From: an uncultured cyanobacterium
GTDB taxonomy: Bacteria > Cyanobacteriota > Cyanobacteriia > Phormidesmidales > Phormidesmidaceae
Direction: 5' to 3'
NCBI GenBank assembly: GCA_963793265.1
Contig: CAWBZI010000004.1
Location: 128,001-192,000 of the forward strand
Length of the DNA: 64,000 bases
The translations under genes were made by a program, and so were the position numbers. Each line of letters starts with the position of its first letter. The stretch's first letter is position 1. Below, piece after piece: positions 1 through 64,000 of the stretch. Below the pieces are notes generated by a model. That model saw nothing but the letters and a program-made list of their open reading frames with translations. It made no database searches and was not told where the DNA came from.

Positions 1-1055
1 GCGATCGCATCTCCTACAGCCTCCAATCCTTTCTCTCCAAACACCTCATATACCGCTTCCATCCCAATCCCTTCTTTCAGCCGCAGGCCCACCATAAAAC
101 TCTCTAGCACCTGCTCCTGTGGGGATATTGCCGGATCTTGTGTGTGGCCGTTTTGCTGAACGAACTGTTCTACCCAGGCGCGGTAAGTGGTCTGAGTGCG
201 GGGGCGATCGCATCGCTGATGATCGATGTAGCTGGTCGCGCCCATACCGAAGCCGTAGTAAGGCTGGCTTTTCCAGTAGGTGAGGTTATGCCGGGCCGGG
301 TAGCCGGGTTTGGCGTAGTTACAAATTTCGTAGTGGTCGTAGCCGTGAGCGCTTAGGTAAGACTGGGCCATGCGGTACATGCTGGCGGTGTTTTCGTCAC
401 TGGGTAGGGGCGCTTGGCCGGGGGTGAAGTAGCGGGAAAAGGCGGTTTGGGGCTCGACGATTAGATCGTATTGGGAGATGTGGGTGGGGGTGAGGGCGAT
501 CGCTTCTGATAAGGAAGCCTGCCAGGTTTCTAGCGTTTGATACGGGAGCCCAGACATAAGATCGAGGCTGATATTTGCAATGTTTGCTTGGTGCAAAAGC
601 TCGACGCTTTGGTGAATATCTTGGCGGCGATGGAAGCGACCGCTGGCGGCTAATACCTCGTCGTGAAAGTCTTGTGCGCCTAAGCTAACCCGGTTGATAC
701 CTGCGGCTCGGTAGCCCTGCATGTGGATTAGATCGAACGTGGCAGGGTCGGCTTCCATGGAAATTTCGGCGGTGGGGGCGATGCCGAAGCGGTTGTCTAC
801 TGCGCTCAGAATTTCTTCTAGCTGAGGCACTGAGAGTAATGAGGGCGTGCCGCCGCCGAAGAATACGGTTTCTAGGGGCGTATTTGGCTGAGTTATGGGG
901 GTGGCTTGAATTTCTTTGATGAGGGTTTGGGTGTATTGTGCGATCGCCCCAGAGGTGTCACCCCGCTTGGTATCTCCTACGACTGAAATTGCAAAATCGC
1001 AGTAAAAGCAGCGCCGACGACAAAAGGGAATATGGATGTAAGCTGACTTTGCCAA
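1..1055 (-). CDS. hemW: Radical SAM heme chaperone HemW (HemN-like); 3' end runs off the window
   Basis: Not in the ORF track; translated by hand: SAYIHIPFCRRRCFYCDF, TVFFGGGTPS, RVSLGAQDF, HYEICNYA, HNLTYW. TTG start at 1055 inferred (in-frame stop upstream, no ATG). Confidence 0.9.
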   Translation of the reverse strand, partial: MAKSAYIHIPFCRRRCFYCDFAISVVGDTKRGDTSGAIAQYTQTLIKEIQATPITQPNTPLETVFFGGGTPSLLSVPQLEEILSAVDNRFGIAPTAEISMEADPATFDLIHMQGYRAAGINRVSLGAQDFHDEVLAASGRFHRRQDIHQSVELLHQANIANISLDLMSGLPYQTLETWQASLSEAIALTPTHISQYDLIVEPQTAFSRYFTPGQAPLPSDENTASMYRMAQSYLSAHGYDHYEICNYAKPGYPARHNLTYWKSQPYYGFGMGATSYIDHQRCDRPRTQTTYRAWVEQFVQQNGHTQDPAISPQEQVLESFMVGLRLKEGIGMEAVYEVFGEKGLEAVGDAI

Positions 1056-1323
1056 AGGCTTTTGCTTGCTGGTGAGTTCTTTGCTGATGGGTTCTTTACG
1101 AGTGAGTTATGTAGATCCTATGGAGGACTATGATTTGCAAGATTACAAAAAAAGAGATAAAGGGAGCGATTGTGAACCCAACCCCTATAATAGCCGTAAT
1201 CATAATCGCATCAATGCTTTAGCGCGTGTTAGCAGGTCTTTCTGAATCCGCTTACCTACACACACTTCAGCAGTTTTAGAAGCGGCATTTCACTAGGTGC
1301 TTAACCGGCCTCATTCATAACTT

Positions 1324-2409
1324 ATGCTCGACGCACTAATCATATTTTCATTCGTTTTAACTGGCGCAGGCATCGGCTTCTACAGCGTCGATTTTTTGCC
1401 CGACTCCGCGCTTCAGCAAGTCACTAATATCGAAGGCTTAGAGTCTGTAACCGGCGGCTTTGGTGCTCTCATCGGCGTGGGCGTGGGCCTAGTCGTGCAA
1501 ACCAGCTATCGACGGCTAGAGCGGCAAATCAAAGGTATGACGCCTGACTTACTGCTGGCGCGCGCGGTGGGCTTAGTCATTGGCTTGCTGATTGCTAACC
1601 TCATGCTAGCGCCTTTGTTTTTGCTGCCCATTCCTGAGAAATTTGGCTTTGTAAAACCAGTAACGGCAGTGATGGGCAGCTTGCTATTTGCCGTCTCAGG
1701 TATGTCATTGGCTGAGACGAACGGCAGAGCGCTGCTACGGCTGATTAATCCGAACAGCTACGAGACGATGCTGATTAACGAAGGCACGCTCAAGCCTGCG
1801 AAGAGTAAAGTACTCGATACAAGCTGCATTATTGACGGGCGCATTGAAGACCTATTACAAACCGGCTTTATTGATGGTCAGCTCGTGCTGCCGCAGTTTG
1901 TTTTGCAAGAGCTACAGCGCGTTGCCGACTCGGCCAGCGATCAGAAGCGAGCACGGGGAAGACGCGGCCTAGACATTATCAATCGTATTCGCGAGCAGTA
2001 TCCCGACCGCGTAATCATCGACCCGGCTGACTATGAAGACATCAACGCGGTTGATTCTAAGCTAGTGAAGTTGGCTCAGGAAATGAATGCGCAGCTACTA
2101 ACGAATGACTACAACTTGAATAAAGTTGCTAGCGTTCAGCAGGTAAGCGTATTGAACATCAACGACTTAGCAAAAGCAATTCGGCCTACTTACCTACCAG
2201 GCGATGACATTGAAATTAGAGTGCTCAAAGAAGGTAAAGAGCCTTCTCAAGGCGTGGGCTATTTAAATGACGGTACGATGGTGGTAGTCGAAGAAGGTCA
2301 TGACTTCATTGGTGACGACTTGCTAGTAGTGGTTACGGGCGCACTACAAACGTCTGCGGGCCGAATGATTTTTGCGCGGCCTAACCGTACGGCGATGGCG
2401 TCTTCTTAA
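1324..2409 (+). CDS. Membrane PIN/TRAM domain protein (YacL family)
   Basis: N-terminal TM helices; PIN motifs LDTSCIIDGRI and LLTNDYNL; TRAM motif GKEPSQGVGYLNDGTMVVVE..SAGRMIFA. Confidence 0.9.
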   Translation: MLDALIIFSFVLTGAGIGFYSVDFLPDSALQQVTNIEGLESVTGGFGALIGVGVGLVVQTSYRRLERQIKGMTPDLLLARAVGLVIGLLIANLMLAPLFLLPIPEKFGFVKPVTAVMGSLLFAVSGMSLAETNGRALLRLINPNSYETMLINEGTLKPAKSKVLDTSCIIDGRIEDLLQTGFIDGQLVLPQFVLQELQRVADSASDQKRARGRRGLDIINRIREQYPDRVIIDPADYEDINAVDSKLVKLAQEMNAQLLTNDYNLNKVASVQQVSVLNINDLAKAIRPTYLPGDDIEIRVLKEGKEPSQGVGYLNDGTMVVVEEGHDFIGDDLLVVVTGALQTSAGRMIFARPNRTAMASS

Positions 2410-2470
2410 GCACTATTGACATAACCATTAGTAACTACATGGCCCTGTATTGCTGAAGAAGGGTATACGA

Positions 2471-2683
2471 ATGTGCGCTACTTATCATTTGAATACTGAT
2501 GAAATCGATCAGGCTTTCTTGGAAGATTTGAAGGCTACCTTTGGAGAAAAGAGAATACAGATCGTTGTACATGAAATTGGCGAAACTGAATACTTGCTAA
2601 AATCCGACGCTAATAGAGAAAGACTCCTCACCGCAAAATCTAATATTGAACAAGGCAAGAACCTAGTCGTCGTAAATCTTTAG
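2471..2683 (+). CDS. Small protein resembling the C-terminal half of YefM/Axe-type antitoxins
   Basis: ETEYLLKSDANRERLL..NIEQGK resembles the YefM motif ETxYLLxSPxNxxRL; ATG at 2471 preferred over TTG at 2450. Confidence 0.55.
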   Translation: MCATYHLNTDEIDQAFLEDLKATFGEKRIQIVVHEIGETEYLLKSDANRERLLTAKSNIEQGKNLVVVNL

Positions 2684-2696
2684 AATGCAGGGCGGG

Positions 2697-3320: not shown

Positions 3321-3368
3321 AGATAATTAGTACCACAGGTTCTTTCTTGAAGCATACATTACGCAGCT

Positions 3369-4025
3369 TTGGCTCTACCTATGACTAACAGAAATGGTTA
3401 CTCTATTAAAAGATGGACGCTAAGGGCCGGGATTTCTGTTCTTGTGCTAGGTGTCGGTCTTCCATTTCTTCAGGCAACTGTACTTCCAGCAGCTTTCGGT
3501 CTTGGCACTTCACTTTTATGGATTGTCGTTATTCCGGTGTCATTGATAATTGGAATTGTTTGTATTGTTTTAGGTCTTCTTTCGCCAATAGGGGAAGCTG
3601 TTTCTACCTTTCGCCTTTTGTTTTTGCTCGTTGGTGGACTACACCTATCTTTATTGTTGTTCTTGACTGGTAGCCTCTCTTGGAATGCTGTCATTGGGCC
3701 GTCTGCAAAGATTATTATTCCGAATGAGTTTAAGGGTCATTTCTTGATAGTTATAGATGACTTCACAGAGCCATCGCTGATGGCAACAGCCGGACGCAAG
3801 TACCTGTATAAGATTCCAGAGAACGGCAAACTCCGAGTTGATCAGGGCTGGATTGCTTTACATTTCGCGTTCGAGGATGGGTATAACGTTCTAGGTAGAC
3901 AGTATATGGTTCAGATTGTTCGCCGTAATGGTACACCGCTAAAATCTAGCGAGTTTGATTGTATGTGGCTAGCTGAGCCGGTAGGGCAGGGAATAGACTG
4001 CGATGTTCAACCCTTGTTAAATTAG
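3369..4025 (+). CDS. Hypothetical membrane protein (about 3 TM helices plus a soluble C-terminal domain)
   Basis: 218-aa ORF with hydrophobic N-terminal half; AT-richer than its neighbours; start may be ATG at 3381. Confidence 0.6.
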   Translation: MALPMTNRNGYSIKRWTLRAGISVLVLGVGLPFLQATVLPAAFGLGTSLLWIVVIPVSLIIGIVCIVLGLLSPIGEAVSTFRLLFLLVGGLHLSLLLFLTGSLSWNAVIGPSAKIIIPNEFKGHFLIVIDDFTEPSLMATAGRKYLYKIPENGKLRVDQGWIALHFAFEDGYNVLGRQYMVQIVRRNGTPLKSSEFDCMWLAEPVGQGIDCDVQPLLN

Positions 4026-5225
4026 CATTCCGGCGATGCAGGCGGTCATAAAGCAGGCGAGGGTGCCTGCGACCATGGCGCGGAAGCCAATGCGGGCTAA
4101 GTCGGCGCGGCGGTTGGGGGCCATGCCGCCGATGCCGCCAATTTGAATGCCAATAGAGCCGATGTTGGCAAAGCCGCAGAGGGCGTAGGTGGCGATGATG
4201 GCGGCGCGTTCGGAGATGGCGTTGTCTTCAATGAGAGTTTGCAAGTCCAGGTAGGCGATGAATTCGTTGAGGACTGTTTTTTTGCCGAGGAGCGCACCGA
4301 CTGCGGCGCAGTCTGTCCAGGGGACGCCCATGAGCCAGGCGACGGGGGCAAGGAGGGCGGCGAGGATGATTTCTAGAGAGAAATTAGGGAAGCCGAATAG
4401 GCCACCGATGAAGCCGAGGAGGGCATTGAAGGCGGCGAGGAGGGCGAGAAAAGCGATGATGAGTGCGCCGATGTTGAGGGCGAGTCTGAGGCCGTCCAGG
4501 GCTCCGGCGGCGATCGCATCAATCCCATTCGCCGTTGTCTTCTCTACCTCAATACTTACCTTGCCCCGCGTTGGCGACACCTCCGTCTCAGGAAACATAA
4601 TTTTCGAGATCGCCAGCGCTGCTGGGGCGGACATCACCGACGCTGCGATGAGGTGATTGGCGGGAATGCCGAAGCCTACATAAGCTGCAAGCACCCCCCC
4701 TGCGACGGTTGCAAAGCCGCCTGTCATAACGGCGTGAAGTTCTGAAAGCGTCATTGTCGCCACGTAGGGTTTGATGAGCAAAGGCGCTTCGGTTTGGCCG
4801 ACGAAGATGTTGCCTGCGGCTGAGAGGGTTTCGGAGCCGGAAGTTTTCATGGTTCGCATCATGGTCAAGGCGATCGCCTGCACGGCCTTTTGCAATATGC
4901 CGTAGTGGTAAAGCAGGCTGATGAAGGCGGAGAAGAAAATGACGGTGGGCAGCACTTTAAAGGCGAAAAAGAAGTCTTGAAAGTTTTCACCGAAGACAAA
5001 AGATGCGCCTGCATCTGAGTAGTCGAGAAAGGCGCTGACGCGATCGCCTAGCCACCGAAATATCGCCAGACCCACAGCGGTGCGAAGGATAAAAAGCGCA
5101 AAGATGAGCTGAAGAGCCAGACCCCAAAGCACTGGCCGCCAGCGAATAGCCGAGCGGTTGACTGAGGTGAGGTAGGCGAATGCGATGAAAACACCTAAGC
5201 CTAAAAGCGCGATGAGTCTTTCCAT
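4017..5225 (-). CDS. nupC: CNT-family (NupC) concentrative nucleoside transporter
   Basis: GNIFVGQTEAPL, MTGGFATVAGGV, NEFIAY, YALCGFANIGSIGIQIGG. Confidence 0.93.
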   Translation of the reverse strand: MERLIALLGLGVFIAFAYLTSVNRSAIRWRPVLWGLALQLIFALFILRTAVGLAIFRWLGDRVSAFLDYSDAGASFVFGENFQDFFFAFKVLPTVIFFSAFISLLYHYGILQKAVQAIALTMMRTMKTSGSETLSAAGNIFVGQTEAPLLIKPYVATMTLSELHAVMTGGFATVAGGVLAAYVGFGIPANHLIAASVMSAPAALAISKIMFPETEVSPTRGKVSIEVEKTTANGIDAIAAGALDGLRLALNIGALIIAFLALLAAFNALLGFIGGLFGFPNFSLEIILAALLAPVAWLMGVPWTDCAAVGALLGKKTVLNEFIAYLDLQTLIEDNAISERAAIIATYALCGFANIGSIGIQIGGIGGMAPNRRADLARIGFRAMVAGTLACFMTACIAGMLI

Positions 5226-5278
5226 AAGGTTTTTGATGGGTAGAGCTATGGCTACTTTGCCATGTGCCTACTTTTACC

Positions 5279-7000: not shown

Positions 7001-7073
7001 AGGTCATCTGTTTACGTTCTTCTACTCTAAGCAAGATTTCAGAATTCAGCAGCGCGGCTAGTGGATATATAAG

Positions 7074-9721: not shown

Positions 9722-9771
9722 AACAGCAAAGAAAAAAGCAATAAGAAGAAAGATTTAGTCGCAGGCAATTT

Positions 9772-15872: not shown

Positions 15873-15874
15873 GT

Positions 15875-16277: not shown

Positions 16278-17331
16278 CTACGACGGACGGTGTGTGAAGT
16301 GTATTTCTGCTAATACGTGACGTAGCTTTTGGGCGGCTTGCTCAGGCGAGAGGCCAGTAACGTCCACTTCGTGAACAGGGCGATCGCGCTGCTCTAATCC
16401 ATAGCGATAGGCGCGGTCGTAGTAGTCGAGAGTGATCGTGACGGCGCTGGCCAAATCACCTGATTGAATGTGGGCGATCGCGGCTTGCGTTCTATCACCG
16501 CCAAGTCGTTTCCGAATCCGTTCAGTGGCAGCGACTAGCTCATCGCGATCGGCTTGACCATAAATGTCTACTAGCAGCGCAACTCTTTCGGCTACCGGGC
16601 GCGTAATTTCAAGGGCAAACGCACTTTCCATTTGCTCGAATAGCTCGGGCGGCACCCGGCAAGATCCGACGCTGCGGCTCTCGGCTTCTATCCAAATCGG
16701 ACGCTGATTGTCAAAGGTATCCCATTCGGTTGCGACCTTATTTTCAAAGTGTTCGGTGCTGGGCTGAGGAGGCAAACACAGCGCGCCATAGCTGCTACCT
16801 CGATGATTAGCGTGGCCTTCAAGATCGAGCACTTGTTCGCCTTGGGCTTTGAGTGCGTGGAGGATGTCTGTTTTGGCGGTGCCGGTCATGCCGCCTAGGA
16901 TGATGATCTTTTTGGGTGTGCTGACGGTGTTGCGAACCCACTGGCGGAAGGTTTTGTAGCCGCCTTGGAGGGTGATGGTTTGGAAACCTGAGAGGTTGAG
17001 CATCCAGGCGATCGCACCACTTCTCATGCCGCCACGCCAGCAGTGAATGCGAATGACTCTATCAGGGGCAATCTTTTTGGCGGTGCGGATCATCTCGCCA
17101 AATTTTGGCCCGGCAATGTCGAAGCCGAGTTCTACGGCCTGCTCACGGCTTTTTTGTTTGTAGCAGGTGCCGACTCGCGCTCGTTCGTCGTCGTTGAAAG
17201 AGCGGAAAGCTGATAGCTCCGGGAATGTGGCCCTGTTTGTATTCGCCTGGCGATCGCACGTCCAAAATGGGGCCGGGGGCCTCAAGAAATTCATCGATTG
17301 TGAGCTGAGGCGTAGCGGGCGCTTGGGACAC
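16278..17331 (-). pseudogene. mnmH: tRNA 2-selenouridine synthase split by a +1 frameshift (sequencing error, pseudogene or programmed shift)
   Basis: GTG at 17331 gives rhodanese ILDVRSPGEYKQGHIPGAISFPLF. The protein continues in another frame as NDDERARVGTCYKQ..HCWRGGMRS..GMTGTAKT..ANHRGS. Length 1054 = 351 codons + 1 nt; the extra base lies at about 17196-17199. Confidence 0.9.
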
Positions 17332-17361
17332 AGGTGCTTTTCTCTTAACCTTTGGCGGACG

Positions 17362-19677
17362 TTACTCGATTGTAAGGGGTTTAGCGATGGGTTTAGATTC
17401 ATGCGCTGAGCTAACTTGACCGATGCAGCGGCTGTAGCTGTAGCCCAGTCGCTTTAGTTCGTCTATGCAGGAGGCTACCTGTTCTGTTGGAATGCTAGCG
17501 AGCAAGCCGCCAGAGGTTTGTGGATCGAAGAGGGCTTGAAAGTTAGGAGAGGAAAGATGGGTGGTGTGGGTTTGGATGCGGGCGATCGCACTCTGTTTAT
17601 TTCGCTCATGCAGTGTACTAACAAGCCCTTTCTGCAAAGTGTCTTTTGCGCCAGGCAATCGCTCAATCGCTTCTAAATCAAGCGTAACGTTAACCTTCGA
17701 GGCAGTGACCATTTCTAACAGATGGCCAGCCAGCCCGAACCCGGTGACATCGGTACAGGCGGTGGCCCTATAGGCTCTGAGGCAGTCGGCGGCATTTTGA
17801 TTGGATTGCAGCATACTTTCAATGGCGCTTTCAATCCAGCGACCTTTGGCCTGACGCTGCATGTCGGCGGCGAAGAGGGTGCCAGTGCCAAGGGCTTTGG
17901 TGAGAATGAGAGACTGGCCGGGCTGAAGCCCGCTTTTGCGCCATATTTGGTCGGGATCTATCCAGCCGTTGCAGGCGAAGCCGAGGGCCAGTTCGGGGCC
18001 TTCGGTGGTGTGTCCGCCGACGAGGAAGGTTTTGGATGGGGCGATCGCAATAGACACCCCAGAAAGGAGCTGATAAAGGATTTCTTCTTGTTTGGCGTCG
18101 GTGCCGTAAGGAACGGTGGCTAAGGCTAAAACGCTGTGGCTAGTCGCGCCCATGGCAAACAGATCGCTGAGGCAGTGGTTAACGCAGATTTGTCCAAAGA
18201 TAAAGGGGTCGTCTACGAGGGCGCGGAACTGATCGACGGTATGGACGTTGAGTTTTCCAGATGGCGTTTTGATGATGGCAGCATCGTCGGGCGCGTCTAG
18301 ACCCGCGTAAATATTGTTGCGATCGGGCCAGTCTTCATTAGCGGGGGCTTCGGCGCGAATGCGGGTAAGTGCGCGGGTAAGTACCTGTTCTCCTACTTTG
18401 GAGCCACAACCAGAGCAGTGCATTCTGGATGTTTCTAATGAATCTCCTTTTGGTAAGGATGTTGCTAAGCGCTCTCTAGAATTTTGAGCTGCCTGCATGT
18501 CAGGAAACTCTGAAAATAAGCTCATGAACTTATGATCAATTCTGTTCTTCCAAGATCTGCACCATTTGGCTCTGACTGCGAATGGCCCCCAAGATGCGAT
18601 AGACGTTTCGGTGTCGGTGTCAATAATGTTGAGATAGCGGCTTTGAGGTCTGAAGGGTTTGAGCGGCTGATCGGTGACGTATCGCTTTAAGTTTTTGTAG
18701 AGCGGCGGGCCCTGGCGAACGGCAAATACGCCTGCTTTCGGGCGCTTGTGGTTGACCATAGTCGCTACGTCACCGGCTGCAAAGATGTTGGGGTGAGAGA
18801 GGGTTTGCAGGGTGTCTTTGACGGCGAGAAAGCCGCTGTCTGTGAGGGTGAGGCCGCTTTCTTTTAGCCAGGGAGGGGCGCTGGCGTTAGTGACCCAGAA
18901 GGTGCGATCGCACTCCACCGTCAGCCCAGAATCACAGCGCACCGAATTTGCAGTTACCTCACACACATTCTCTTCGGTGTGCACCTGAATACTTCTCTCG
19001 CGGCACATCTTCTCAACCATCCACTGCGTTAGCCGGTTGCGGCCTTTGGCTAAGTGTGGGCCACGTTGAAAAATATGAACAGCAATCTGCCCGGCAGGAG
19101 CTTGAGCGTAGTCTTTAATTAGGTGATGCAAGCGAACCTGCATGGCAAAGGCCATTTCTACACCACCGACGCCGCCGCCTACAATGCTGACGACAGCAGG
19201 CGCTTTCGGATCTTTTGAAAGTCTCTTTTTGAGCGTATCAAGATAGCTTTCCCAGGCTTTCAACAGCTTGGGTACAGGTTTAGCAGGAATGGCGTGTTCG
19301 GCTGCGCCAGGGACTTGAGACTTGGTAGGTGTGCTACCGATGTCTATAGAGAGCGCGTCGTATGCGATGGGCGGGTGATTTTTGCAAATCACTTTTTGCC
19401 CGCTGCTATCTAGCCCAATCATCTCGTCCATAATCAGCCGACAGTTGGCAAAGCGCGTCAGCGGTCTGAGGTCGATATGGGCGGTATCAAAGTCGTAAAG
19501 GCCCGAGATGTGGCAGGGCAACATGCCTGAGTAGGGCGTGTCGGCCAGGTTGGTAATTAGCGTGAGGCGGACGTCAGCAGGCCAGGGGTTCATGCCCATT
19601 TTGCGCAGCACGAGCGCGTGGCTGTGACCCCCACCGACTAGGACAAGATCTTGAGTGATGGGGGGAGCAGGTTGCAT
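17362..19677 (-). CDS. selD: Selenide,water dikinase SelD fused to an N-terminal FAD/NADH oxidoreductase domain
   Basis: LVLVGGGHSH, FAAGD, PKAGVFAVRQG; SelD part MHCSGCGSKV, DDAA, VGGHT, TDVTGFGLAGHL, DPQTSGGLL; ATG at 19677. Confidence 0.93.
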   Translation of the reverse strand: MQPAPPITQDLVLVGGGHSHALVLRKMGMNPWPADVRLTLITNLADTPYSGMLPCHISGLYDFDTAHIDLRPLTRFANCRLIMDEMIGLDSSGQKVICKNHPPIAYDALSIDIGSTPTKSQVPGAAEHAIPAKPVPKLLKAWESYLDTLKKRLSKDPKAPAVVSIVGGGVGGVEMAFAMQVRLHHLIKDYAQAPAGQIAVHIFQRGPHLAKGRNRLTQWMVEKMCRERSIQVHTEENVCEVTANSVRCDSGLTVECDRTFWVTNASAPPWLKESGLTLTDSGFLAVKDTLQTLSHPNIFAAGDVATMVNHKRPKAGVFAVRQGPPLYKNLKRYVTDQPLKPFRPQSRYLNIIDTDTETSIASWGPFAVRAKWCRSWKNRIDHKFMSLFSEFPDMQAAQNSRERLATSLPKGDSLETSRMHCSGCGSKVGEQVLTRALTRIRAEAPANEDWPDRNNIYAGLDAPDDAAIIKTPSGKLNVHTVDQFRALVDDPFIFGQICVNHCLSDLFAMGATSHSVLALATVPYGTDAKQEEILYQLLSGVSIAIAPSKTFLVGGHTTEGPELALGFACNGWIDPDQIWRKSGLQPGQSLILTKALGTGTLFAADMQRQAKGRWIESAIESMLQSNQNAADCLRAYRATACTDVTGFGLAGHLLEMVTASKVNVTLDLEAIERLPGAKDTLQKGLVSTLHERNKQSAIARIQTHTTHLSSPNFQALFDPQTSGGLLASIPTEQVASCIDELKRLGYSYSRCIGQVSSAHESKPIAKPLTIE

Positions 19678-46395: not shown

Positions 46396-47904
46396 CTACT
46401 GGGCGTCTCTGGCTCGTCCGTATAGCTCAGTCATTTGTCTGAGATGTTCGCAGAGGGTGGGGGTGAGCATGGCTTCTGCGTAGCGCCAGCCCCAGTTGCC
46501 TTCGCCGACGCCGGGTGTGTTCATGCGGGCCTGGGAGCCTAAGCCGAGTAGATCTTGTAGGGGAGTGACGGCCTGGTTGGCGGTAGAACTCATGGCGAGG
46601 CGAATCATTGACCAGTGAACGTTGTCAGGATTGAATGCGCCGACATAGGCAGCGAGGCGCTGCTTTTCGTAGTCTGTGCCCTGGTTAAACCAGCCGACGG
46701 TGGTGTCGTTGTCGTGGGTGCCGGTGTAGACGACGAAGTTGGGGGCGATGTTGAAGGGGAGATAGGGGTTTTTGTGGTCGCCGCCGAAGGCAAACTGAAG
46801 AATTTTCATGCCGGGGAAGTCGAACTTATCGCGGAGGGTTTCGACAGCTTCGTCAATTTCTCCTAAGTCTTCGGCTAGAAAGGGAAGCTGGCCTAGTTTT
46901 TCTTCGACTGTCTCGAAGAAGGCGACGCCGGGGGCTTCGATCCATTCGCCGTTGATGGCGGTTTCGTGGCCTGCGGGGATGGCCCAGTAGGCGGCAAAGG
47001 CTCTGAAGTGGTCAATGCGGATGATGTCTACTTGCTCTAGTAGGGCCTGAAGGCGCTGTATCCACCAGCTAAAGCCGCTGGCCTGGACGACTTCCCAGTT
47101 GTAGGTGGGGTTGCCCCAAAGCTGGCCGGTGCTGCTGAAGTAGTCAGGTGGGACGCCTGCCATTTGGGAGGGCTCTAGGGTTTCAGGGTCAAGCATGAAG
47201 TTTTCGGGGCGAGCCCATACGTCGGCGCTGTCGTGGGCGACGTAGATGGGCATGTCTCCGACGATTTTGATGCCGCGCTCGTTGGCGTAGCCTTTGACGG
47301 CTGACCACTGCCGGTAAAACTCGAACTGCATGTATTCATGGAAGAAGATTTCGGCGGCGAGATCTACTCTGGCCTGGTTGAGCGCGAAGGCGTCGCGTTT
47401 GGCGATCGCACTATCCCACTGCGACCAGGGCACCCCGCCATTGGCATCCTTAAGCGCCATGAATAGCCCGTAGTCTTCTAGCCACTCGCGGCAGACTCTG
47501 CGGAAGTTATCAAAGGCTTTGCGATCGCCCTCATTTGCCGTCTCCTTAAACCGCCCTGCTGCCTTGCGCAATAGCGATAGCTTAAACTCATACACCGCAT
47601 CGTAATCGACGGTTTGAGCAGAGAACCCTTGACCTAAGGTAAAGTCGTCTGCGTCTAGCAGTCCTTGGGCCTGAAGCGTCTCCAGGCTGATGAGTAAGGG
47701 ATTGCCTGCCATGGCAGAATAGGCCATGTAGGGCGAGTTACCGTGGCCGGTGGGGCCGAGCGGTAAAATCTGCCAGAGTGACTGCTGAGAGTCTTCTAAA
47801 AATTCTACAAATCGGTAAGCGTGAGCACCTAAGTCGCCAATGCCGAAGCGGCCCGGTAGCGAGGTGGGATGTAGCAAAATGCCGCTGGCTCTAGGAAAAG
47901 ACAT
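46396..47904 (-). CDS. malQ: 4-alpha-glucanotransferase (amylomaltase)
   Basis: GILLHPTSLPG, AGVPPDYFS, RIDHFR, AEDLG, YTGTHDNDT; ATG at 47904. Confidence 0.96.
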   Translation of the reverse strand: MSFPRASGILLHPTSLPGRFGIGDLGAHAYRFVEFLEDSQQSLWQILPLGPTGHGNSPYMAYSAMAGNPLLISLETLQAQGLLDADDFTLGQGFSAQTVDYDAVYEFKLSLLRKAAGRFKETANEGDRKAFDNFRRVCREWLEDYGLFMALKDANGGVPWSQWDSAIAKRDAFALNQARVDLAAEIFFHEYMQFEFYRQWSAVKGYANERGIKIVGDMPIYVAHDSADVWARPENFMLDPETLEPSQMAGVPPDYFSSTGQLWGNPTYNWEVVQASGFSWWIQRLQALLEQVDIIRIDHFRAFAAYWAIPAGHETAINGEWIEAPGVAFFETVEEKLGQLPFLAEDLGEIDEAVETLRDKFDFPGMKILQFAFGGDHKNPYLPFNIAPNFVVYTGTHDNDTTVGWFNQGTDYEKQRLAAYVGAFNPDNVHWSMIRLAMSSTANQAVTPLQDLLGLGSQARMNTPGVGEGNWGWRYAEAMLTPTLCEHLRQMTELYGRARDAQ

Positions 47905-48039
47905 AAATACTTCTATGGCGCTTTTGATTGCAATGCCAAGCACTCTATCACGGGCAAGCGAGCCCTAAACTCTGCTTTTTGAGAGAACAGTGGGAGAATG
48001 TCAAAACTTGAACATGCTTCATGCAAGGTTGGCATTGTT

Positions 48040-48628: not shown

Positions 48629-49699
48629 ATGTTAACTACGTCATCGCTCGATCTCAACAGTTTGAAAGCAGGGCTGAAAGAAAGCTTGAAAGAACAGTTA
48701 AAAGAGAACTTTCAGGATAATTCAGCCGCCGCAAGATATGCTACAGAGCTGAGTTTTTTGGCGCATGGTGAGGCGAATGCTATTTTTCGGTTGAGCGATC
48801 AGCAGCTTGTAAGGGTGGCAGTGAATACGCCTAATCAGCGCTTTGATGGGGAGGTGAGTCGGCTAACCGAGTTTGAGCAGGCGGTTTTGCTCTATATAAA
48901 AGGAACGGGCATTGGGCACGAGCTAGCAGCGGCAAAGCTGAGTCCTGATGCCTTATTTCCATATACTTATTTAATTACTAACTATCTGATTGGCCAACCG
49001 CTAGACTACAGCCGTACCCATTTAAGAAAGTGTGCTCATACGCTAGCTCATCTGCATAGGTTGCCACTGGCCGCAGATTATGACGTTGCTCAGCTTGTGC
49101 CGCCGCTGGTGTCTGTCGAGCAGCCGTTACAGCTTTTTTATCAGGAGTCAAAAGATTACGCTCAGCCTTATATTGAATCGACGGGGGCGGATTTGCGGAT
49201 TGTTGAGATGATTGAGGCTTTGTTGGTAAAGGCGCGATCGCACCTACCTGATGCCCAAAGGCTAATCGACTATCCTTATCGCTGCCTGGTGCATAGCGAT
49301 CACACTTACGACAACTGGGTGATCAATCAGCAAAGTGCCTACTTGATTGATTGGGAGTGGGCTGAGGTGGGCTCTCCGGCTGGTGATTTGGGCCACTTTT
49401 TATCGCCTGTGACGATTTGCAGGCGTGAGGGCTATCAGATGCCCGCCGAAGACCGAGCGTTTTTTTTGCGGTGTTATTACGAGGCTTTGGGCGATAGAGA
49501 CTTGGAGATTGCTATCAAACATCATTTTGCTGCGTTTGGCGCGTTTCCGGCGGTGCGATCGCTCTGCTGGACGGCGGGCTACTGGATTACTGCCAATCGC
49601 TGGTACGACGATGGCGAACAGGTCGATCCGAGCGATCGCTATGAACAGTTCAAAAGTCTGTGGCTTTCTGTGATGGACTGGTTAGATGAAGATATTTAA
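48629..49699 (+). CDS. Aminoglycoside-phosphotransferase/choline-kinase-like small-molecule kinase
   Basis: LAHGEAN loop, Brenner-like HSDHTYDN, LIDWE, DLGHFL. Confidence 0.8.
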   Translation: MLTTSSLDLNSLKAGLKESLKEQLKENFQDNSAAARYATELSFLAHGEANAIFRLSDQQLVRVAVNTPNQRFDGEVSRLTEFEQAVLLYIKGTGIGHELAAAKLSPDALFPYTYLITNYLIGQPLDYSRTHLRKCAHTLAHLHRLPLAADYDVAQLVPPLVSVEQPLQLFYQESKDYAQPYIESTGADLRIVEMIEALLVKARSHLPDAQRLIDYPYRCLVHSDHTYDNWVINQQSAYLIDWEWAEVGSPAGDLGHFLSPVTICRREGYQMPAEDRAFFLRCYYEALGDRDLEIAIKHHFAAFGAFPAVRSLCWTAGYWITANRWYDDGEQVDPSDRYEQFKSLWLSVMDWLDEDI

Positions 49700-50588
49700 T
49701 CGGATGCTAGATGAGCGGTGGCGGGCTTATTTGTTACTGCTGCCTGCGCTGAGCTTAGTCGGTCTGTTGTTTGGCGGCGGGCTGGCGCTGGCGTTTTTGC
49801 AGAGCTTGGGTTTGTGGGGGCTGACAGGAGACGGCGTGCTTTCGCTGGCGGCTTATGGCTCGGCGCTAGGGCGTGAGGGATTTTGGCGATCGCTTACCCT
49901 CAGCCTTTACATAGCACTCGTCTCGACTGGACTCTCGACGGTTCTAAGCATTGGCCTGGCGCTGTTGCTGCGCTCGGCGGGGCGGTGGGCGAGTTTTGCC
50001 TGTCAGCTCACGCTGCCGATTCCGCATCTGGTCGGGATTGCAGGGATGTTACTGCTGCTGTCGCCTAGCGGGCTGCTGTCGCGACTGCTGTTTGATTTGG
50101 GGTTAATTCAATCGGATCAGGGCTTTCCGCTGCTGGTGAATGACGGCGCTAATTTGGGTGTGATAATTCTCTTTTTGTGGAAGGAGATTCCGTTTATGAC
50201 GCTGATTTTGCTGGCGGTGCTGCGCGGAATTCGGCCTGAGTATGAGCGTCAGGCGAGAGCGTTGGGGGCGAGCCGGTGGCAGTGCTTTTGGTCGGTGACG
50301 CTGCCGCTGATGAAGCCGGGGATTGTGTCGGCAAGTTTGATTGTGTTTGGCTATGTGTTTGGCTCGTTTGAGGTGCCGTTTTTGCTAGGGGCGACCTATC
50401 CGCAAGCGCTGCCGGTGCTGGTGTATCAGGCGTTTACAAATGTGGACTTGGCGCAGCGGACGACGGCGATCGCCTTAGGTTTATTACTCTCATTTGTCTC
50501 GTTAGCACTTAGCGGGCTTTATTTGTGGCTAGGATCTAAAGATGCGAGTAAACCGTTAAAAAATTCTCTCTTTCAGCAACCATCATGA
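49686..50588 (+). CDS. ABC transporter permease (YnjC/PotB-like)
   Basis: TM helices; EAA loop YERQARALGAS; WKEIPF. Confidence 0.9.
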   Translation: MKIFNRMLDERWRAYLLLLPALSLVGLLFGGGLALAFLQSLGLWGLTGDGVLSLAAYGSALGREGFWRSLTLSLYIALVSTGLSTVLSIGLALLLRSAGRWASFACQLTLPIPHLVGIAGMLLLLSPSGLLSRLLFDLGLIQSDQGFPLLVNDGANLGVIILFLWKEIPFMTLILLAVLRGIRPEYERQARALGASRWQCFWSVTLPLMKPGIVSASLIVFGYVFGSFEVPFLLGATYPQALPVLVYQAFTNVDLAQRTTAIALGLLLSFVSLALSGLYLWLGSKDASKPLKNSLFQQPS

Positions 50589-51376
50589 CCAAAAATGCGC
50601 TGCTGGGCCTGATCATTAGCGTGCTGTTTCTGCCGTTCTTGCCGCTGCTGATTAGCTCGTTTGCAAACGGCTGGTATTTTCCGCAGCTATGGCCGCAAGA
50701 CTGGACGATGGTGCACTGGCAGGCGGTTTTTTCGACGACTTCTAAGGTGGGAGAGGGATTTTTGCAGAGTTTGGTGATTGCAGCGATCGCAACCGGCCTA
50801 GCCCTAGTCGTAGGGCTACCTGCGGGGCGGGCTTTGGGGCTGATGGATTTTCCTGGTAAGGCTGGGATTAAGCTGTTTTTGCTAATGCCGATTATTGTCT
50901 CGCCGCTGGCGACGCTGATGGGAATTCAGTCGGTGCTGATTCGGTTGGGGCTTAGCGGCACGGTGACGGGCGTGGTGCTGGTGCATTTGCTGCCGATCAT
51001 TCCTTATATGACTTTGGTGTTGAGCAGCGTGTTTGCTAATTTTGATCCAGGGTATGAGGTACAGGCGCGATCGCTCGGCGCATCCCCCTGGCAGGTGCTC
51101 ACTAACATCACGCTACCAATCATTTTGCCGGGCGTAGTAGTAGGCTCACTGTTTGCCTTTTTAATCTCGTGGAATGAGTTTTTGCTGACGTTTTTTGTCG
51201 GTGGCGGTCGGGTGTTTACGCTGCCGATGGTGCTGTTTACGTCGCTTCAAGGGGGGAACAGCGGGCTGACGGCGGCGATCGCGATTACTTCAGTCATACC
51301 CGCGCTGGTTTTTCTGTTGTTCTCTAGCCGGGCGCTGCAAAATGAGGCGGCAATTGGTGGGCTAGGAGACGTGTGA
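50585..51376 (+). CDS. ABC transporter permease (PotC-like)
   Basis: YEVQARSLGAS; FLISWNEF. Confidence 0.9.
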   Translation: MTKNALLGLIISVLFLPFLPLLISSFANGWYFPQLWPQDWTMVHWQAVFSTTSKVGEGFLQSLVIAAIATGLALVVGLPAGRALGLMDFPGKAGIKLFLLMPIIVSPLATLMGIQSVLIRLGLSGTVTGVVLVHLLPIIPYMTLVLSSVFANFDPGYEVQARSLGASPWQVLTNITLPIILPGVVVGSLFAFLISWNEFLLTFFVGGGRVFTLPMVLFTSLQGGNSGLTAAIAITSVIPALVFLLFSSRALQNEAAIGGLGDV

Positions 51377-53801: not shown

Positions 53802-54632
53802 ATGGCTTTTAAAGAACGTGAGAGTCGCGATCGCGGCGTCATTGAGAACAACCGTTTGATGGAACTGCATCTTTATCCTGGCAACCGATGCAATCGAGAC
53901 TGTGATTTTTGTACGGTGTTTGGTACGCCAAAGGGTGACTATATTGCTTATGAGGCGGCGCATTTAGACGCGGCTTTGCGCTCTGTGATACTGAATGATC
54001 AAGGGGCGATTAAGTTTTATGGGGGTGAGCCGACGCTGGATCATCAGAATGTGATTTGGGCGATTTCTTATTTGCGCGATCACGATTTCACAGGCGCAAT
54101 TGTGATCTACTCCAACGGCATTCGCGCTGAGCAGCTAATTGAGGTTCTAGAATCTGATTCGCTAGGGAAAACAACCGCCTCACTTAATTACTCAATTGCC
54201 ACAGGAGACGGCGCGCCGCAGATGCCGCTAAAGGCTTTGAAGCGACTGGAAGACTATGAGGAAATGCACGAGGGAGCGATCGCAATCGGTCACCCTGACA
54301 TCGTGGACTCAGGTCGCGGCGTCGATCCGTTTACCGGCGAAGAAACCCGCCCCAAAGTTAACTCCACCTGCCCCCACTGCTACCCCGTACTCAAAAGCGA
54401 CGGCCAGTTTCACGCCTGCCCGTTTGCCATCGAAAACGACTCCCCCCACTTCCAGCTAGGCGACATCAACACGCCGCCTGCTGAAGTCGCCCAAAACTTT
54501 GACGCCTTCTTCGAGTGGCTTGACACTGTTCATCAGCCCTACGCCGAAGCCCACGAACTGCCCGCCTGCACGGTCTGCTGGAAACATTTACACGAACTAC
54601 CTGTGCCCAGAGGAATTCCTGTAAATGCTTAA
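53802..54632 (+). CDS. Radical SAM protein with Cys-rich C-terminus
   Basis: CNRDCDFC, YGGEPT, YSNG; C-terminal CPHC..HACPF..CTVC. Confidence 0.85.
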   Translation: MAFKERESRDRGVIENNRLMELHLYPGNRCNRDCDFCTVFGTPKGDYIAYEAAHLDAALRSVILNDQGAIKFYGGEPTLDHQNVIWAISYLRDHDFTGAIVIYSNGIRAEQLIEVLESDSLGKTTASLNYSIATGDGAPQMPLKALKRLEDYEEMHEGAIAIGHPDIVDSGRGVDPFTGEETRPKVNSTCPHCYPVLKSDGQFHACPFAIENDSPHFQLGDINTPPAEVAQNFDAFFEWLDTVHQPYAEAHELPACTVCWKHLHELPVPRGIPVNA

Positions 54633-54708
54633 CGCCGCCTAAAAGATGAGAACGGGGTCTAAAAATCGTCTAAATTAGACATTGATTTGTCGATGACAAG
54701 GAAACCCC

Positions 54709-55098: not shown

Positions 55099-55109
55099 CG
55101 GCAACCTCC

Positions 55110-55133
55110 GTAGGGGCGCAAGACCTTGCGCCC
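55110..55133 (+). repeat. Single GTAG-type REP
   Basis: GTAG-GGGCGCAAG-AC-CTTGCGCCC hairpin. Confidence 0.7.
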
Positions 55134-55190
55134 TCCGTCTGAGACAACACCCCCCACCCTTCACCCAACAGCAAATTCTCCCGAGGCACT

Positions 55191-56561: not shown

Positions 56562-56595
56562 TCTCTATGAGCCTTTGCGGCATGTATGCAATCTT

Positions 56596-60539: not shown

Positions 60540-60577
60540 ACGAGGGGCTAACGCTAGGTGATTTGAGATAAAAGAGG

Positions 60578-63463
60578 CTAAACCTTGAACTGGGTTGTGC
60601 TAGTCTGAAGCGCCTCGGCGGTTTCTAGCACCTGCTGAATAGATCCTGCGAGATGATGAGAACTATCAGAGGTTTGATTGGCAATCTCTGTCGCTTCAGT
60701 CATAGCCCGCGTTACGACCTTAAACTCACTGGCCTGCTGGTGAGTGGTTTGGGTAATATGGCCAATGAGCTGGCTGATCTCTTCAGTGGCTTTGACAATA
60801 GCCGTCAGATTTTGGCGAGCGTCGCTGACGAGCGTTGTTCCGGCTGCGACCTGCTGAATGCCAGTCTCCATTGCCGTCGAGACTTCAGCCGTACCCGTCT
60901 GAATTTCTTGCACAAACTGTTCAATCTCAGTGGCGGCTGCCGCCGACTGTCGGGCGAGCGATCGCACTTCATCGGCGACAACAGCAAATCCTCTGCCATA
61001 CTCTCCGGCCCGCGTTGCCTCAATTGAGGCATTTAGCGCCAGAAGCTGCGTTTGAGTCGTAAAGTGACTGATCAAACTCACGATTTTAGAAACCTTTTGC
61101 GAAGACTCGCTCAGTCGCTTAATGCGCTGGTTAGTTTCAGCGACCGTTGAGCGAATAGCCACAATCCCGTCTACTGTTCGGTTCATCGCACCGTCTCCTT
61201 TCTGCATGGTGCGGCTAGCCTGTCGCGCTGCGGTTTCTACCCGCTGCGCATCTCGGGCCACCGTTTCAGTCGAAACCACCATTTTTTGAATGAGAATTAG
61301 CGCCTGCTCTAGCGCCTGCGCCTGCTGCTGCGCCTGCTGAGTAACCGACTGGGCAGAGGTTTCGCTCAGCCGAGACGTTTCACCCACCTGGTCTGCGGCT
61401 ACCTGCACCTGGCTGACAATTTTTTGCAGGCTTTGTAGGGTGTTGTTGTAGGCACTAGCGACCGTACCGACTTCTGTTTCAGTGACTTGCGCCCGTACGG
61501 TCAGATCGCCTTTTAAGGCGGGGCCAACCGCTTTCAAAAGCTGAATGACCTGCTGCTGGAGTAGCTCTTTAGAGGCTTTTTCGCGGTTAGCTAGCTCTGT
61601 GAGCTTAGTCGTTTTGTCCTGCACCTGCTCTAAATATTCAGCCTGCTGCAGCGCCAGGTTTAGCTGAGCGCCAATGCGGTGTGCAAACTGTACGTCTGCT
61701 TCTGTCCACTCGCGAGGGCCGGTGCATTGATGAATAGCAAACAGACCCCACAGCACGTCGCCTACTAGCAGGGGCACCACAATACTGGCTTTTACCTGTA
61801 GCTCGCCCAGCAGCTCAATAAGACAGTAGCTGACATCTAGTTCGGCGATGTCATTGACAACCCAGTAGCGACCTTTGCGGTAGTTCTCGGCTTGCTCCTC
61901 AGCAAAGCAGTGATCTTGTACCTTAGCAGCCATCGCTGAGCGAACACCGACCGCCACATCTTCAACGACAAACTCACCCACGCTGTAGTTTTTCGTGGCG
62001 TCCATCTGAAACAGCCCTACTCGGTCGGCGGCTAGCAGGTGGCGAATATCTTGCACCGTTGCTCTGAGCGCTCTGGGTAATTCTTTGGTGCTACGCAGTC
62101 GTTCGGCAACTTTCGTAATCAGTTGCTCTCTGGCTACAGCGTCTTCAAGCTGCTGGTTAGTCGCTTGGATTTGGCCCAGATAGTCTGCCTGCTGCATGGC
62201 CAAATCAAGCTGGGCCGCAACCCGCCGCACAAAGGCTATTTCTAAGGCTTGCCACTGACGCGGCTCGGCGCACTGGTGAATACAAAACAGGCCCCATAGC
62301 TGATTGTCTTTCAGCATAGGAACGACAAGATTAGCTTTCACCTGAAACTGATCGAGCAAGTCAACGTAGCACTCAGGAATGCCTGCGTTGTGAACGTCAT
62401 CGATTGTCGAAATCCTGCCCTGCCGGTAGGCTTCAGCCATCGAATTGCTAAAGCAGTGATCTTCAACAACAATTTCTTTGGCTGAGACAAAGGCAGGGTT
62501 GACGCTTTCGGCAACCACTTCGCCCTGGGTATAGCCGCTCTCTGGCAAGAACTGAAAGACGGCGACGCGATCGCTCTTTAAAAAGTTCCTGAGCTTTCTT
62601 GCCGTTGACTCAAACACCTCAGAAAGATTCGAGAGTTCGCGAACGTTTTGAATGACGGTTGCGAGGGTTTCTCCACGGGCAATTTCTTGCTGGCTCTGCT
62701 GTTCTAGCCTGTATGTTTGCTGCCTGAGCGCAATATCTGAGGCGACTTGATGGAGAAAGGCAACTGTTTGCTCATCCCAAGATCTGCTCTTATCACACTG
62801 CTGAACCACGAGCAGTCCCCATGGCTGGCCGACTGTAACAATGGGCAGGCTCAAGCTGGCCTGTACCTGAAAACGCTGTAAAATCTGCATCTGATGAGGA
62901 GAAACAGCCTCCTCGCTAGCATTTGAGAGCGCGATAGGTTGCCCCTGATAGTCACTGGCGTTAGCAGCACCGAAAGCGATCGCATCGAAACTCTCTCCTA
63001 GCGTGGGCGTATAGCCTGCTGTGACAGACTCAGCGATGACGCTACCGGCTGATGGCATTGCGAACTGATAGACAAGAGCGCGATCGCATCGAAACTGCTT
63101 GCGAAGCGCAGAAACTGCAATTTGATAGAGATTTTCTGGCGTAGTCGCCTGATCCATCTGCCCGGCAATATCGAACGTCTCAAAGAGCGATCCTGGCTGC
63201 GTTCTATGCGCAGCAGTCATAGGCTCGTAGGCTGAGGCTGAGGCTATATCTGGTTCGCGTAATGGCTCATCGGATATCTCTTCTGGCAGGTGCGGAGCCT
63301 TTCCACTATCATCACCGCTGTCACCGTCGCCGCTGTCGTCGCTATCTCTCTCTAGAACGCTCGTGGCAATATTTCCATTGAGAGAGTGTTGCGCTAAGTC
63401 ATCAGCATCAACAAGATCGTTTGTAGCGTCGTAATCGTTTGTAGCGTCGTAGTTCATAGTCAT
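60578..63463 (-). CDS. Soluble methyl-accepting photoreceptor with three GAF domains (two DXCF cyanobacteriochrome GAFs), PixJ/PtxD-like
   Basis: GAF2 EDHCF..ECY; GAF3 QDHCF..YCL; MCP tip [34 protein letters not shown]; no TM segment seen. Confidence 0.92.
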
Positions 63464-63554
63464 AGTGAATGTCTAAATACGTTGGGATCGGGAATATAAA
63501 AAAGATAGAAACTTACTATTTTGTTCGCTGCTATCTGCCAGCTTATCTGCCAGC

Positions 63555-63998
63555 TTATTTGTCAGCTAAGGTGCGATCTTGCCGAAGTGACGATTCGAAA
63601 ATAGCGGCAACACTCAGAACCGTTCCTCCCTGCTGGGGGCAATATCCCAGCACAAAAGGCTCCAGGCTAGGCGGACACAAGCCGGTTTCCATATAAATTT
63701 GCTGCTCGTCAAATAAATCAATATCGCCAACCTGTTCTACAACGAGTCCTAACGCGTGACCCGAAAACTGAACCACAATGCTGATAGGCGGCTTCGCAAT
63801 CTGAGAGGGTTGAAATAAGGGCTCGTAGCCAACTAAATGATTGAGATCTACCAGCCAAAGAGTTTCGCCCTCCCATCCACATACGCCCAATACGCAATCA
63901 GGCATATCAGGCACTGGAAAAATATCTTCTAGTGATAGCTGGACAACTTCTGTAATTTGATCGAGTGGTAGTAACGCACTGCTCTTTTGCGAAAGCAT
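63555..63998 (-). CDS. CheW protein (5' end probably beyond the window)
   Basis: ITEVV..IFPVPDMPDCVLGV..W.GE.LWLVDL..GLVVEQV. Confidence 0.88.
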   Translation of the reverse strand: MLSQKSSALLPLDQITEVVQLSLEDIFPVPDMPDCVLGVCGWEGETLWLVDLNHLVGYEPLFQPSQIAKPPISIVVQFSGHALGLVVEQVGDIDLFDEQQIYMETGLCPPSLEPFVLGYCPQQGGTVLSVAAIFESSLRQDRTLADK

Positions 63999-64000
63999 AA

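Follow-up and report, generated by a model that had tools for sequence, protein, structure and literature searches.

Does a short palindrome repeated throughout a cyanobacterial genome leave a mark on the DNA around it? The question is raised by a 64,000-nt stretch of an uncultured cyanobacterium (G000:C4:128001-192000; "the window" hereafter means this whole stretch), in which the palindrome HIP1 (GCGATCGC, identical to its own reverse complement) occurs 90 times (positions 1, 204, 496, 940, 4510 ... 62976, 63080). A sequence-only reading of the window had proposed that the DNA is G-rich before HIP1 and C-rich after it. To our knowledge, three decades of work have not demonstrated any activity of HIP1. 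We report that a G-before/C-after footprint at most HIP1 copies is real, strong and genome-wide, and that it is direct genomic evidence of a directional, strand-specific process starting at HIP1. The source assembly, G000, is 5.68 Mb in 7 contigs (50.7% G+C, 98.97% complete), with 4,764 genes called by a dicodon model of our own (84% coding). One protein of the window has its closest named matches in Phormidesmis sp. (74%) and Leptolyngbya sp. BC1307 (68%), which suggests a filamentous cyanobacterium close to Phormidesmis as the source. HIP1 is strongly over-represented in it: there are 6,884 copies, spaced ~0.8 kb apart, compared with 168-766 copies of each one-mismatch word (both strands counted), and 23% of the genome lies within 100 bp of some HIP1.

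The Skew Flip at HIP1 Is Genome-Wide

Within the window, the GC skew is higher before than after HIP1 at 74 of the 89 scorable sites (50-bp flanks), whereas 2,000 random draws of 89 positions gave a mean of 43 and a maximum of 58. Because the regional background is G-rich (about +0.13), the flip here is a drop and not always a change of sign. Over the 6,884 sites of G000, the 30-bp flanks have a skew of +0.22 on the upstream side and -0.23 on the downstream side, and 85% of the sites flip. The half-difference in skew is 0.165 (z = 86), whereas 141 further palindromic octamers, each occurring at least 30 times, average -0.004 (standard deviation 0.020); the two highest-scoring of these controls overlap HIP1 halves. 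Both sides of the footprint are present in all 41 blocks of 150 kb. The flip read from the window is borne out genome-wide as a HIP1-centred pattern: the metaplot does carry an antisymmetric skew, its profile is not shared by the 141 control octamers, which average zero, and each strand is C-rich 3' of HIP1, as proposed, and also G-poor. Away from HIP1, CGATCG, GATC and other short palindromes are flat in G000, the 6,642 strand-counted GATC words giving +0.05/-0.05 and no footprint. Among the 12 one-mismatch words, only GTGATCGC (0.12-0.13) and GCAATCGC (0.05) have a clear footprint.

An artefact, be it of word composition, of codon usage, of gene position or of a hairpin, is extremely unlikely as the source of the pattern. 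The profile had been expected not to outlive codon-preserving shuffling; most of the signal is indeed lost, but 0.043 of 0.171, about a quarter, is left because amino acids shift too. This remainder, and the fact that the gene calls come from our own model, could speak for an artefact. On the other side, the control palindromes are flat, the one-mismatch words are flat save for decayed HIP1 sites, and no clear footprint is seen at the tripeptide Ala-Ile-Ala when it is spelled GCTATTGC (22 sites) or GCCATTGC (27 sites), although non-HIP1 Ala-Ile-Ala is a control contaminated by decayed HIP1 words. Furthermore, several HIP1-rich genomes lack the footprint, which is impossible for a word artefact. 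Genome-wide, 2,968 of the 3,321 Ala-Ile-Ala tripeptides of G000 are spelled as HIP1. Two structural origins were rejected as well: the arms on either side of HIP1 are no more complementary than chance, with no mirror complementarity as a hairpin or quasi-palindrome would have, and predicted RNA folding is -0.51+-0.21 kcal/mol versus -1.00+-0.28 kcal/mol in controls (250 HIP1 and 124 control windows).

Silent Sites, Reach and Strand Symmetry

On the sense strand, fourfold sites after HIP1 read -0.60, -0.48, -0.41, -0.33, -0.25 and -0.17 from 4-10 up to 101-150 bp, and those before it read +0.60, +0.48, +0.41, +0.33, +0.25 and +0.17 over the same distances; because these profiles are mirror-equal, gene direction is irrelevant. 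The footprint is equal in all three reading frames of HIP1, and the ln(C/G) shift is ~1.0 on each side in regionally G-rich, neutral and C-rich strands. The claim that neither gene strand nor regional (replichore-like) skew explains the pattern holds, both sides being symmetric in either case, and this symmetry rules out an origin in transcription or in the replichore.

At fourfold sites, C gains (~0.29 to 0.45) and G loses (0.26 to 0.11), with shifts of only a few points in A and T; G+C near HIP1 is 0.57-0.61 versus 0.52-0.57 further out. The shift is seen in 8 of 8 fourfold and 13 of 13 twofold codon boxes, and since twofold boxes shift, transitions are involved. Two components, of 51+-5 bp and 575+-74 bp, fit the decay with distance, in agreement with the predicted reach of tens to hundreds of bp. 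The per-base flank profile shows no position-specific consensus and no clear helical periodicity. As a side observation, the footprint 3' of HIP1 varies with the base immediately 5' of the word on that strand, with values of 1.03-1.05 for T or C and 0.84-0.88 for A or G (frame uncontrolled).

The effect amounts to 1.01 at fourfold and 0.71 at twofold sites, 0.20 and 0.13 at the first and second codon positions, and 0.28 in intergenic DNA. The first two codon positions thus take 20% and 12% of the fourfold effect, compared with 4% and 0% for regional skew. The intergenic value is 28% of the fourfold one, and this weakness is not specific to HIP1, because regional skew is damped there even more, to 13% (0.10 versus 0.80). 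Regional skew in G000 is itself patchy at fourfold sites (standard deviation 0.32 in ln C/G, 60-kb blocks) and can hardly be seen at the first two codon positions or in intergenic DNA. Amino acid use shifts too: after HIP1, Ile, Thr, Asn, His and Pro go up, and Val, Met, Glu and Gly go down (2,570 Ala-Ile-Ala HIP1 sites).

The base shifts of the footprint resemble those of the regional replichore-like skew, with G against C dominant and the change in A and T small. HIP1 might on this ground be a lagging-strand priming site or a fork-convergence point, with a local leading/lagging bias in its flanks; the spacing of ~0.8 kb is near the length of Okazaki fragments, and going from G-rich to C-rich is the direction of change expected at a terminus. 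We consider this very unlikely, because a lagging-strand process predicts one-sidedness, whereas both sides are ~1.0 in G-rich, neutral and C-rich regions, regional skew being only a proxy for fork direction in these heavily rearranged genomes. Replication GC skew has the same base spectrum and is additive with the footprint in G000, but it flips once per replichore, whereas the footprint does so at thousands of copies of one defined word, each time within ~50-600 bp.

The same resemblance could arise from single-strand exposure, in which a nick or break at HIP1 would be followed by 5'-to-3' resection, with cytosines lost by deamination or ultraviolet light on the 5' strand and the resynthesised strand cleaned. 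On the 3' strand, G is lost most where A follows (template 5'-TC), at -0.68 to -1.10 versus -0.40 to -0.79 elsewhere, and the TTC/ATC boxes have the largest shift, as such exposure would predict. The context effect is modest, however, all contexts shift, and G+C is not lowered near HIP1 at fourfold sites; with the divergence data given below, we regard this explanation as unlikely.

The Footprint Follows Mainly the Nearest HIP1

Where another HIP1 lies further out on one side, the effect there is 1.06-1.27, little different from the 1.17 of isolated sites. An opposing HIP1 cancels the effect, which reads 0.10, 0.54, 0.73 and 1.03 as the opposing site moves from 4-40 to 151-300 bp. A nearest-only model is better than an additive one by 82 log-likelihood units, with a best weight of 0.24 for further sites. 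The footprint is governed mainly by the nearest HIP1 on each side.

The GTGATCGC words also carry a footprint (0.74/0.63). In the genome pair G011/G047, 6 of 10 aligned GTGATCGC words correspond to HIP1 in the partner genome, and of the 33 unshared HIP1 sites 10 read GTGATCGC and 5 read GCAATCGC in the other genome. These alignments suggest that GTGATCGC and GCAATCGC words are mostly decayed or flickering HIP1 sites that retain the footprint, and their derivation from HIP1 would explain why only those one-mismatch words show it. The effect at unshared HIP1 sites of this pair is about half of that at shared ones (0.06-0.09 versus 0.13-0.14), as would be expected if young gains and recent losses are mixed; with numbers this small (15 and 18 sites), skewed context may also favour the gain of HIP1. 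The excess of GTGATCGC (766 copies versus 264 and 168) fits 5-methylcytosine at that base.

Decayed words bear on a further alternative, weak selection on the flanks, in which a protein bound to HIP1 or an uptake machine would track outward and prefer a C-rich, G-poor strand, the flanks then extending the motif diffusely. The conservation of HIP1 was taken as selection by Xu et al. (PMC5861425, in its available text), several one-base extensions (GGCGATCGCC) in the part of Elhai's Table 3 available (PMC4390886) share the polarity, and weak selection would also yield the two-way redirection of substitutions described below. We nevertheless find it improbable: decayed words keep the footprint, the smooth reach of hundreds of bp comes with no position-specific consensus or clear periodicity, and the arms have neither mirror complementarity nor extra RNA folding.

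Substitutions near HIP1 Appear to Be Redirected

The nearest relatives of G000 are only ~70-79% identical to it, and G004, G009 and G007 are heavily rearranged; relatives of 85-90% identity are likewise heavily rearranged. Because the relatives of G000 are too distant or rearranged for a polarised three-genome spectrum, we used the unpolarised pair G011/G047 (160,526 aligned bp, 90.9% identical). HIP1 is common to both at 186 of 219 sites, compared with 10,588 of 19,856 (53%) background octamers that are identical, and 37 of 41 HIP1 sites also occur in the more distant G004. Judging from these alignments, HIP1 is conserved among relatives beyond background.

Within genes, 617 silent differences lie at most 40 bp from a shared HIP1, where 655 are expected. 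The silent divergence beside HIP1 is 0.187 (3,946 sites; a narrower cut agrees), compared with predictions of 0.157 if rates only fall (z = +3.5), 0.231 if rates only rise (z = -4.4) and 0.191 under two-way redirection (z = -0.4). It is thus most likely that substitutions near HIP1 are redirected both ways with their total unchanged, a result that assumes equilibrium and reversibility and comes from a single pair. It counts against an error-prone patch and equally against a plain increase in fidelity. Single-strand exposure also fares poorly here, since it predicts that rates only rise. The sequence-only reading had suggested that HIP1 may be an entry point for nicking, resection and resynthesis that leaves a mutational footprint; polarity and centring agree with an entry point, but a mutagenic patch as worded there is not supported, the rates-only-rise model being rejected. 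On the 3' strand, estimated rates are raised for G>T (8.8+-1.8 versus 4.3), G>C (6.3+-1.4 versus 3.6) and T>C (30+-3 versus 21) and lowered for A>G (15+-2 versus 21) and C>G (2.4 versus 3.6). These estimates assume equilibrium and reversibility, are in part set by composition itself and derive from a single pair, with 2,035 fourfold sites near HIP1.

A bias of fixation, not of mutation, could also account for these numbers. Under biased gene conversion in HIP1-anchored recombination, DNA imported by natural transformation, or passed between copies of the chromosome, would be cut, loaded or made to invade at HIP1, giving a polar heteroduplex in which donor mismatches that contain G are removed more than those that contain C, and C would rise and G fall on the 3' side. 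A fixation bias raises one direction of change and lowers the other, leaving total divergence near unchanged, as found; rare events in a large population would probably suffice, fragments bounded by HIP1 would explain the dominance of the nearest site, and the effect does enter codon positions 1 and 2 more than regional skew, with a shift in amino acids. ComEC is encoded in 19 of 19 genomes, but in some of these no footprint can be detected. Under the Hex/MutS rules, the polarity would be opposite if a Chi-like 3' end lay at HIP1, and a donor 5' end is needed there. In the available text of a preprint on PCC 7002 (bioRxiv 2024.09.10.611283), methylated HIP1 boosts transformation up to >100-fold, but deletion of addAB leaves this effect; HIP1 is described as co-varying phylogenetically with competence genes in the accessible part of PMC13756078. 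In the 50 kb scored of the PCC 7002 plasmid pAQ7 there is no footprint (0.02+-0.11, 66 sites). Taken together, we consider biased gene conversion the main rival of the explanation preferred below, and somewhat less likely than it.

Distribution among Lineages

All 20 samples from the genus of G000 are positive, 19 of them with z of at least 2.8. Among 26 samples from outside the genus (13-260 kb each, in which kin are not independent), 23 have the positive sign and 9 reach at least 2 standard errors. Positive values were found in G091 (0.70+-0.05), G073 (0.83+-0.15), Microcoleus loci (0.46), pCC7120beta (0.47, a weak positive), a Pseudanabaenaceae locus (0.41), G018 (0.33), G100 (0.31), G061 (0.31) and G082 (0.23). 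Fairly well-powered blanks are G016 (0.11+-0.08, 217 sites), G017 (0.08+-0.07, 162 sites) and G020 (0.14+-0.11). So are an S. elongatus plasmid (0.04+-0.08) and pAQ7; the PCC 6803 plasmid sample shows no footprint either, and plasmids are perhaps not at equilibrium. S. elongatus plasmids and G017 have a block in common that is 87% identical. A reversed footprint in one 20-kb sample of G016 was gone once 140 kb was scored (0.11+-0.08). Named genomes were surveyed with a signalling-protein query whose matches were mostly non-cyanobacterial, and 9 of the 80 loci were scored, 5 of them a second time. The footprint outside the genus ranges from strong to undetectable.

The number of CGATCGC half-sites relative to HIP1 also varies. 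It is high in genomes without a clear footprint (110/162 in L003, L184 and L185; 110/42 in L004, L198 and L199; 57/85 in L008 and other G016 loci) and low in G000 (733/6,884) and G073 (1/40); footprint-positive G018 (84/50) is an exception.

A Possible Mechanism and Its Machinery

The bias at HIP1 is polar, strand-symmetric, set by the nearest site and neutral in total rate. The explanation that we tentatively prefer is that HIP1 is an entry site that settles the choice of the strand to be rewritten when there is a mismatch or a damaged pair close to it. The DNA would be nicked at the nearest HIP1 or next to it, and 5'-to-3' removal of the strand 3' of the nick would follow, by excision or nick translation, in tracts mostly <100 bp and sometimes of several hundred. 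The removed strand would then be recopied from the other strand, regardless of which one is new or damaged, so that errors on the rewritten strand would be erased and those on the template strand fixed; total divergence would stay unchanged because the two balance. Work on MutS and polymerase errors suggests that most recognised mismatches contain G (G.T, G.G, G.A). If so, the rewritten strand would lose G and gain C, and A and T would hardly move, in line with the observed shifts. Composition yields the axis only, and which strand is rewritten is what we infer.

The likeliest machinery would be MutS and an endonuclease-type MutL, with some HIP1-reading factor. Genes for MutS and MutL occur in G000, together with those for a Dam-type methylase and for an orphan C5 methylase that is conserved (C4:630912-632333, of putative CGATCG specificity; an exact look-up of its sequence gave no named match). 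Its MutL carries the stretch EQHIAHERVLYE, which we take to resemble the endonuclease motif. No match to MutH (PF02976) or Vsr (PF03852) was found in G000, the E. coli controls being positive, and none to NucS (PF01939) in G000, G004, G011 or G091; partial, NucS-like matches occur in 5 of the 21 genomes searched. Of these 21, 19 encode MutL, with an orthologue of the C5 methylase in 12 of 21 and an N6/N4 methylase in 10 of 21, and no profiled family, ComEC included, separates footprint-positive from footprint-negative genomes in this set. The ComEC-family frame is ~520-545 codons long in G000 (C6:84222-85778), G004 and G011 versus 723-857 in most others and is split in G082 and G020, an observation that bears on the competence of the genus.

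Several points weigh against HIP1 as such an entry site. The proposed nick and enzyme are deduced from composition and divergence; a bias this strong requires the process to act on most lesions near HIP1; and repair blind to the new strand has no obvious benefit. Intergenic sites show only 28% of the fourfold effect, and the assumptions behind the rate estimates count here as well. The 19 genomes with MutL include some without a detectable footprint. A putative CGATCG C5 methylase occurs in G016, which has no clear footprint (0.11+-0.08), while its orthologue was not found, with this query, in footprint-positive G091, G100 and G018 (0.70, 0.31 and 0.33). In G015, the alternative palindrome GGGATCCC leans the opposite way (-0.24+-0.09, 72 sites; L007, L196 and L197), which could be chance. 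Finally, the numbers obtained would be no different under biased gene conversion or weak selection, and the mechanism may belong to either repair or recombination.

The blank G017, which has no C5 or N6/N4 family match, and S. elongatus, which is without a CGATCG methylase according to the available text of PMC4390886, fit a need for methylation, whereas G091, G100, G018 and G016 do not. A link between the footprint and the CGATCG methylase across lineages is doubtful, although a loss could be recent or another methylase could serve.

Comparison with Known Systems

In the available text of Elhai (2015; PMC4390886), a nick opposite methylated GC at HIP1 was postulated, followed by MutS/MutL strand removal of up to ~1 kb. 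This G-mC-directed repair concerns the same word, and the paper lists palindromic one- to two-base extensions of HIP1, several of them G-before/C-after, the only knowledge of the flanks given there. It differs from our proposal in explaining the origin of HIP1, and the text available is without flank skew, excision polarity or a distance profile. It also ties repair to CGATCG methylation, whereas the footprint appears not to follow the putative C5 methylase, and it predicts a one-sided effect at half-sites. In G091, half-sites gave -0.55+-0.11 before and -0.10+-0.12 after (137 sites), with -0.29/-0.32 at G-rich control words; the one-sided half-site footprint in G091 and G100 was not upheld after this context control, and the G091 values match a weak two-sided effect on a G-rich baseline. 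No half-site footprint was found in G000 or its genus.

Mismatch repair in E. coli is bidirectional and directed to the new strand. The Dam/MutH system shares with our proposal the mismatch-triggered use of a methylatable palindrome; GATC lies inside HIP1, and MutS and MutL are present. However, MutH is not found in G000 and is absent from cyanobacteria (PMC5101192, in its available text). Any GATC signals in the Dam/MutH system, whereas non-HIP1 GATC is flat here, and in 100 kb of E. coli K-12 neither GATC (437 words, 0.045+-0.031) nor CCWGG (263 words, -0.045+-0.047) has a footprint. Dam/MutH repair lowers new-strand errors, whereas a model in which rates only fall is rejected here (z = +3.5, for one pair with equilibrium assumed). 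In Vsr repair, a nick at a methyl-cytosine palindrome leads to 5'-to-3' rewriting of either strand, which would give the polarity of the footprint; the patch is <~10 bases and is triggered only by T.G at the site. Dcm/Vsr differs in these respects from a footprint with decay components of 51 and 575 bp, no Vsr match exists in G000, and E. coli CCWGG is flat. NucS/EndoMS mismatch repair differs in that nucS was not found in G000.

Chi and DNA uptake sequences are also abundant short words that anchor polar processing or uptake, and HIP1 boosts transformation in PCC 7002. Chi and uptake sequences are oriented words and not palindromic, whereas HIP1 is a palindrome, and deletion of addAB does not abolish the HIP1 effect; no flanking skew flip was reported for them in the literature listings searched. 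We found no description of a skew flip at HIP1 in the full-text literature, mostly open-access main texts (including the available parts of PMC6105098, PMC13250602 and PMC9001825). The word "skew" is absent from the available text of PMC4390886 and PMC5861425 and has another sense in that of PMC13756078. The footprint is apparently undescribed so far.

Individual Sites in the Window

The seven G/C counts made by hand in the sequence-only reading were all exact on recount: C23/G2 at 11-60, G27/C6 at 421-480, G24/C12 at 18841-18900, C23/G8 at 18912-18970, G22/C13 at 47341-47400, C21/G10 at 47411-47460 and C28/G10 at 54361-54420. Of its 12 named examples, three are weak in the first 60 downstream bases, namely those at 496 (G16/C13), 11645 (G18/C16) and 54276. 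In the last of these, the C-rich stretch 54361-54420 lies 78-137 bp from HIP1 54276, and the nearest 60 bp are G18/C18.

All sites are given on the plus strand. HIP1 1-8 has a C-rich 3' flank (G2/C26 in 60 bp; 1-68) and lies inside a gene on the minus strand, a 351-codon open frame (3-1055) that is cut by the window edge and has a CxxxCxxC motif; the frame had been named hemW, which presumably is correct, the name agreeing with the features of that family. HIP1 496-503 has a G-rich 5' flank (G29/C5; 436-503) and a 3' flank that is not C-rich. Flips inside minus-strand genes are seen at HIP1 4510-4517 (G25/C14 before, G9/C22 after; 4450-4577) in a NupC/NupG nucleoside transporter gene (4017-5225), at 17582-17589 (G29/C3, G10/C15; 17522-17649) and 18904-18911 (G25/C12, G8/C23; 18844-18971) in an oxidoreductase-SelD fusion gene (17362-19677), and at 47402-47409 (G22/C13, G12/C24; 47342-47469) in a 4-alpha-glucanotransferase gene (46396-47943). 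In plus-strand ABC permease genes they are seen at 49886-49893 (G26/C12, G11/C19; 49826-49953; gene 49686-50588) and 51067-51074 (G19/C8, G14/C22; 51007-51134; gene 50585-51376). HIP1 54276-54283 (G20/C12 before; 54216-54420) is the weak example described above. The oxidoreductase-SelD fusion adjoins a gene for tRNA 2-selenouridine synthase (MnmH), the two spanning 16278-19677 of the window.

Elsewhere in G000, GG[AT]CC is very scarce (138 strand-counted words away from HIP1), and two C5 methyltransferase genes look broken or split (C1:809848-811017 and C4:93034-94084), which suggests a restriction system, past or present.

Implications for Cyanobacterial Genomes

It is conceivable, though we hold it with less confidence than the role of HIP1 as an entry site, that many cyanobacteria have a strand-choice system, without a known counterpart, in which a palindrome occurring ~1/kb sets which strand is overwritten in repair or recombination, by position alone and not by age or methylation, and without MutH, Vsr or NucS. 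Such a system would divide the genome into thousands of small polar domains, would write into proteins and would be the activity of HIP1; lineages without a footprint would have lost or changed the reader. For whatever process acts at HIP1, the footprint supplies a polarity, a reach (~50 bp plus a tail), a nearest-site rule and neutrality in total rate. A footprint score is computable for any genome, so that comparing lineages that have the footprint with those that do not can help to find the factor. Models of codon usage, GC skew and substitution in cyanobacteria would be confounded by the footprint, which also alters amino acid use.

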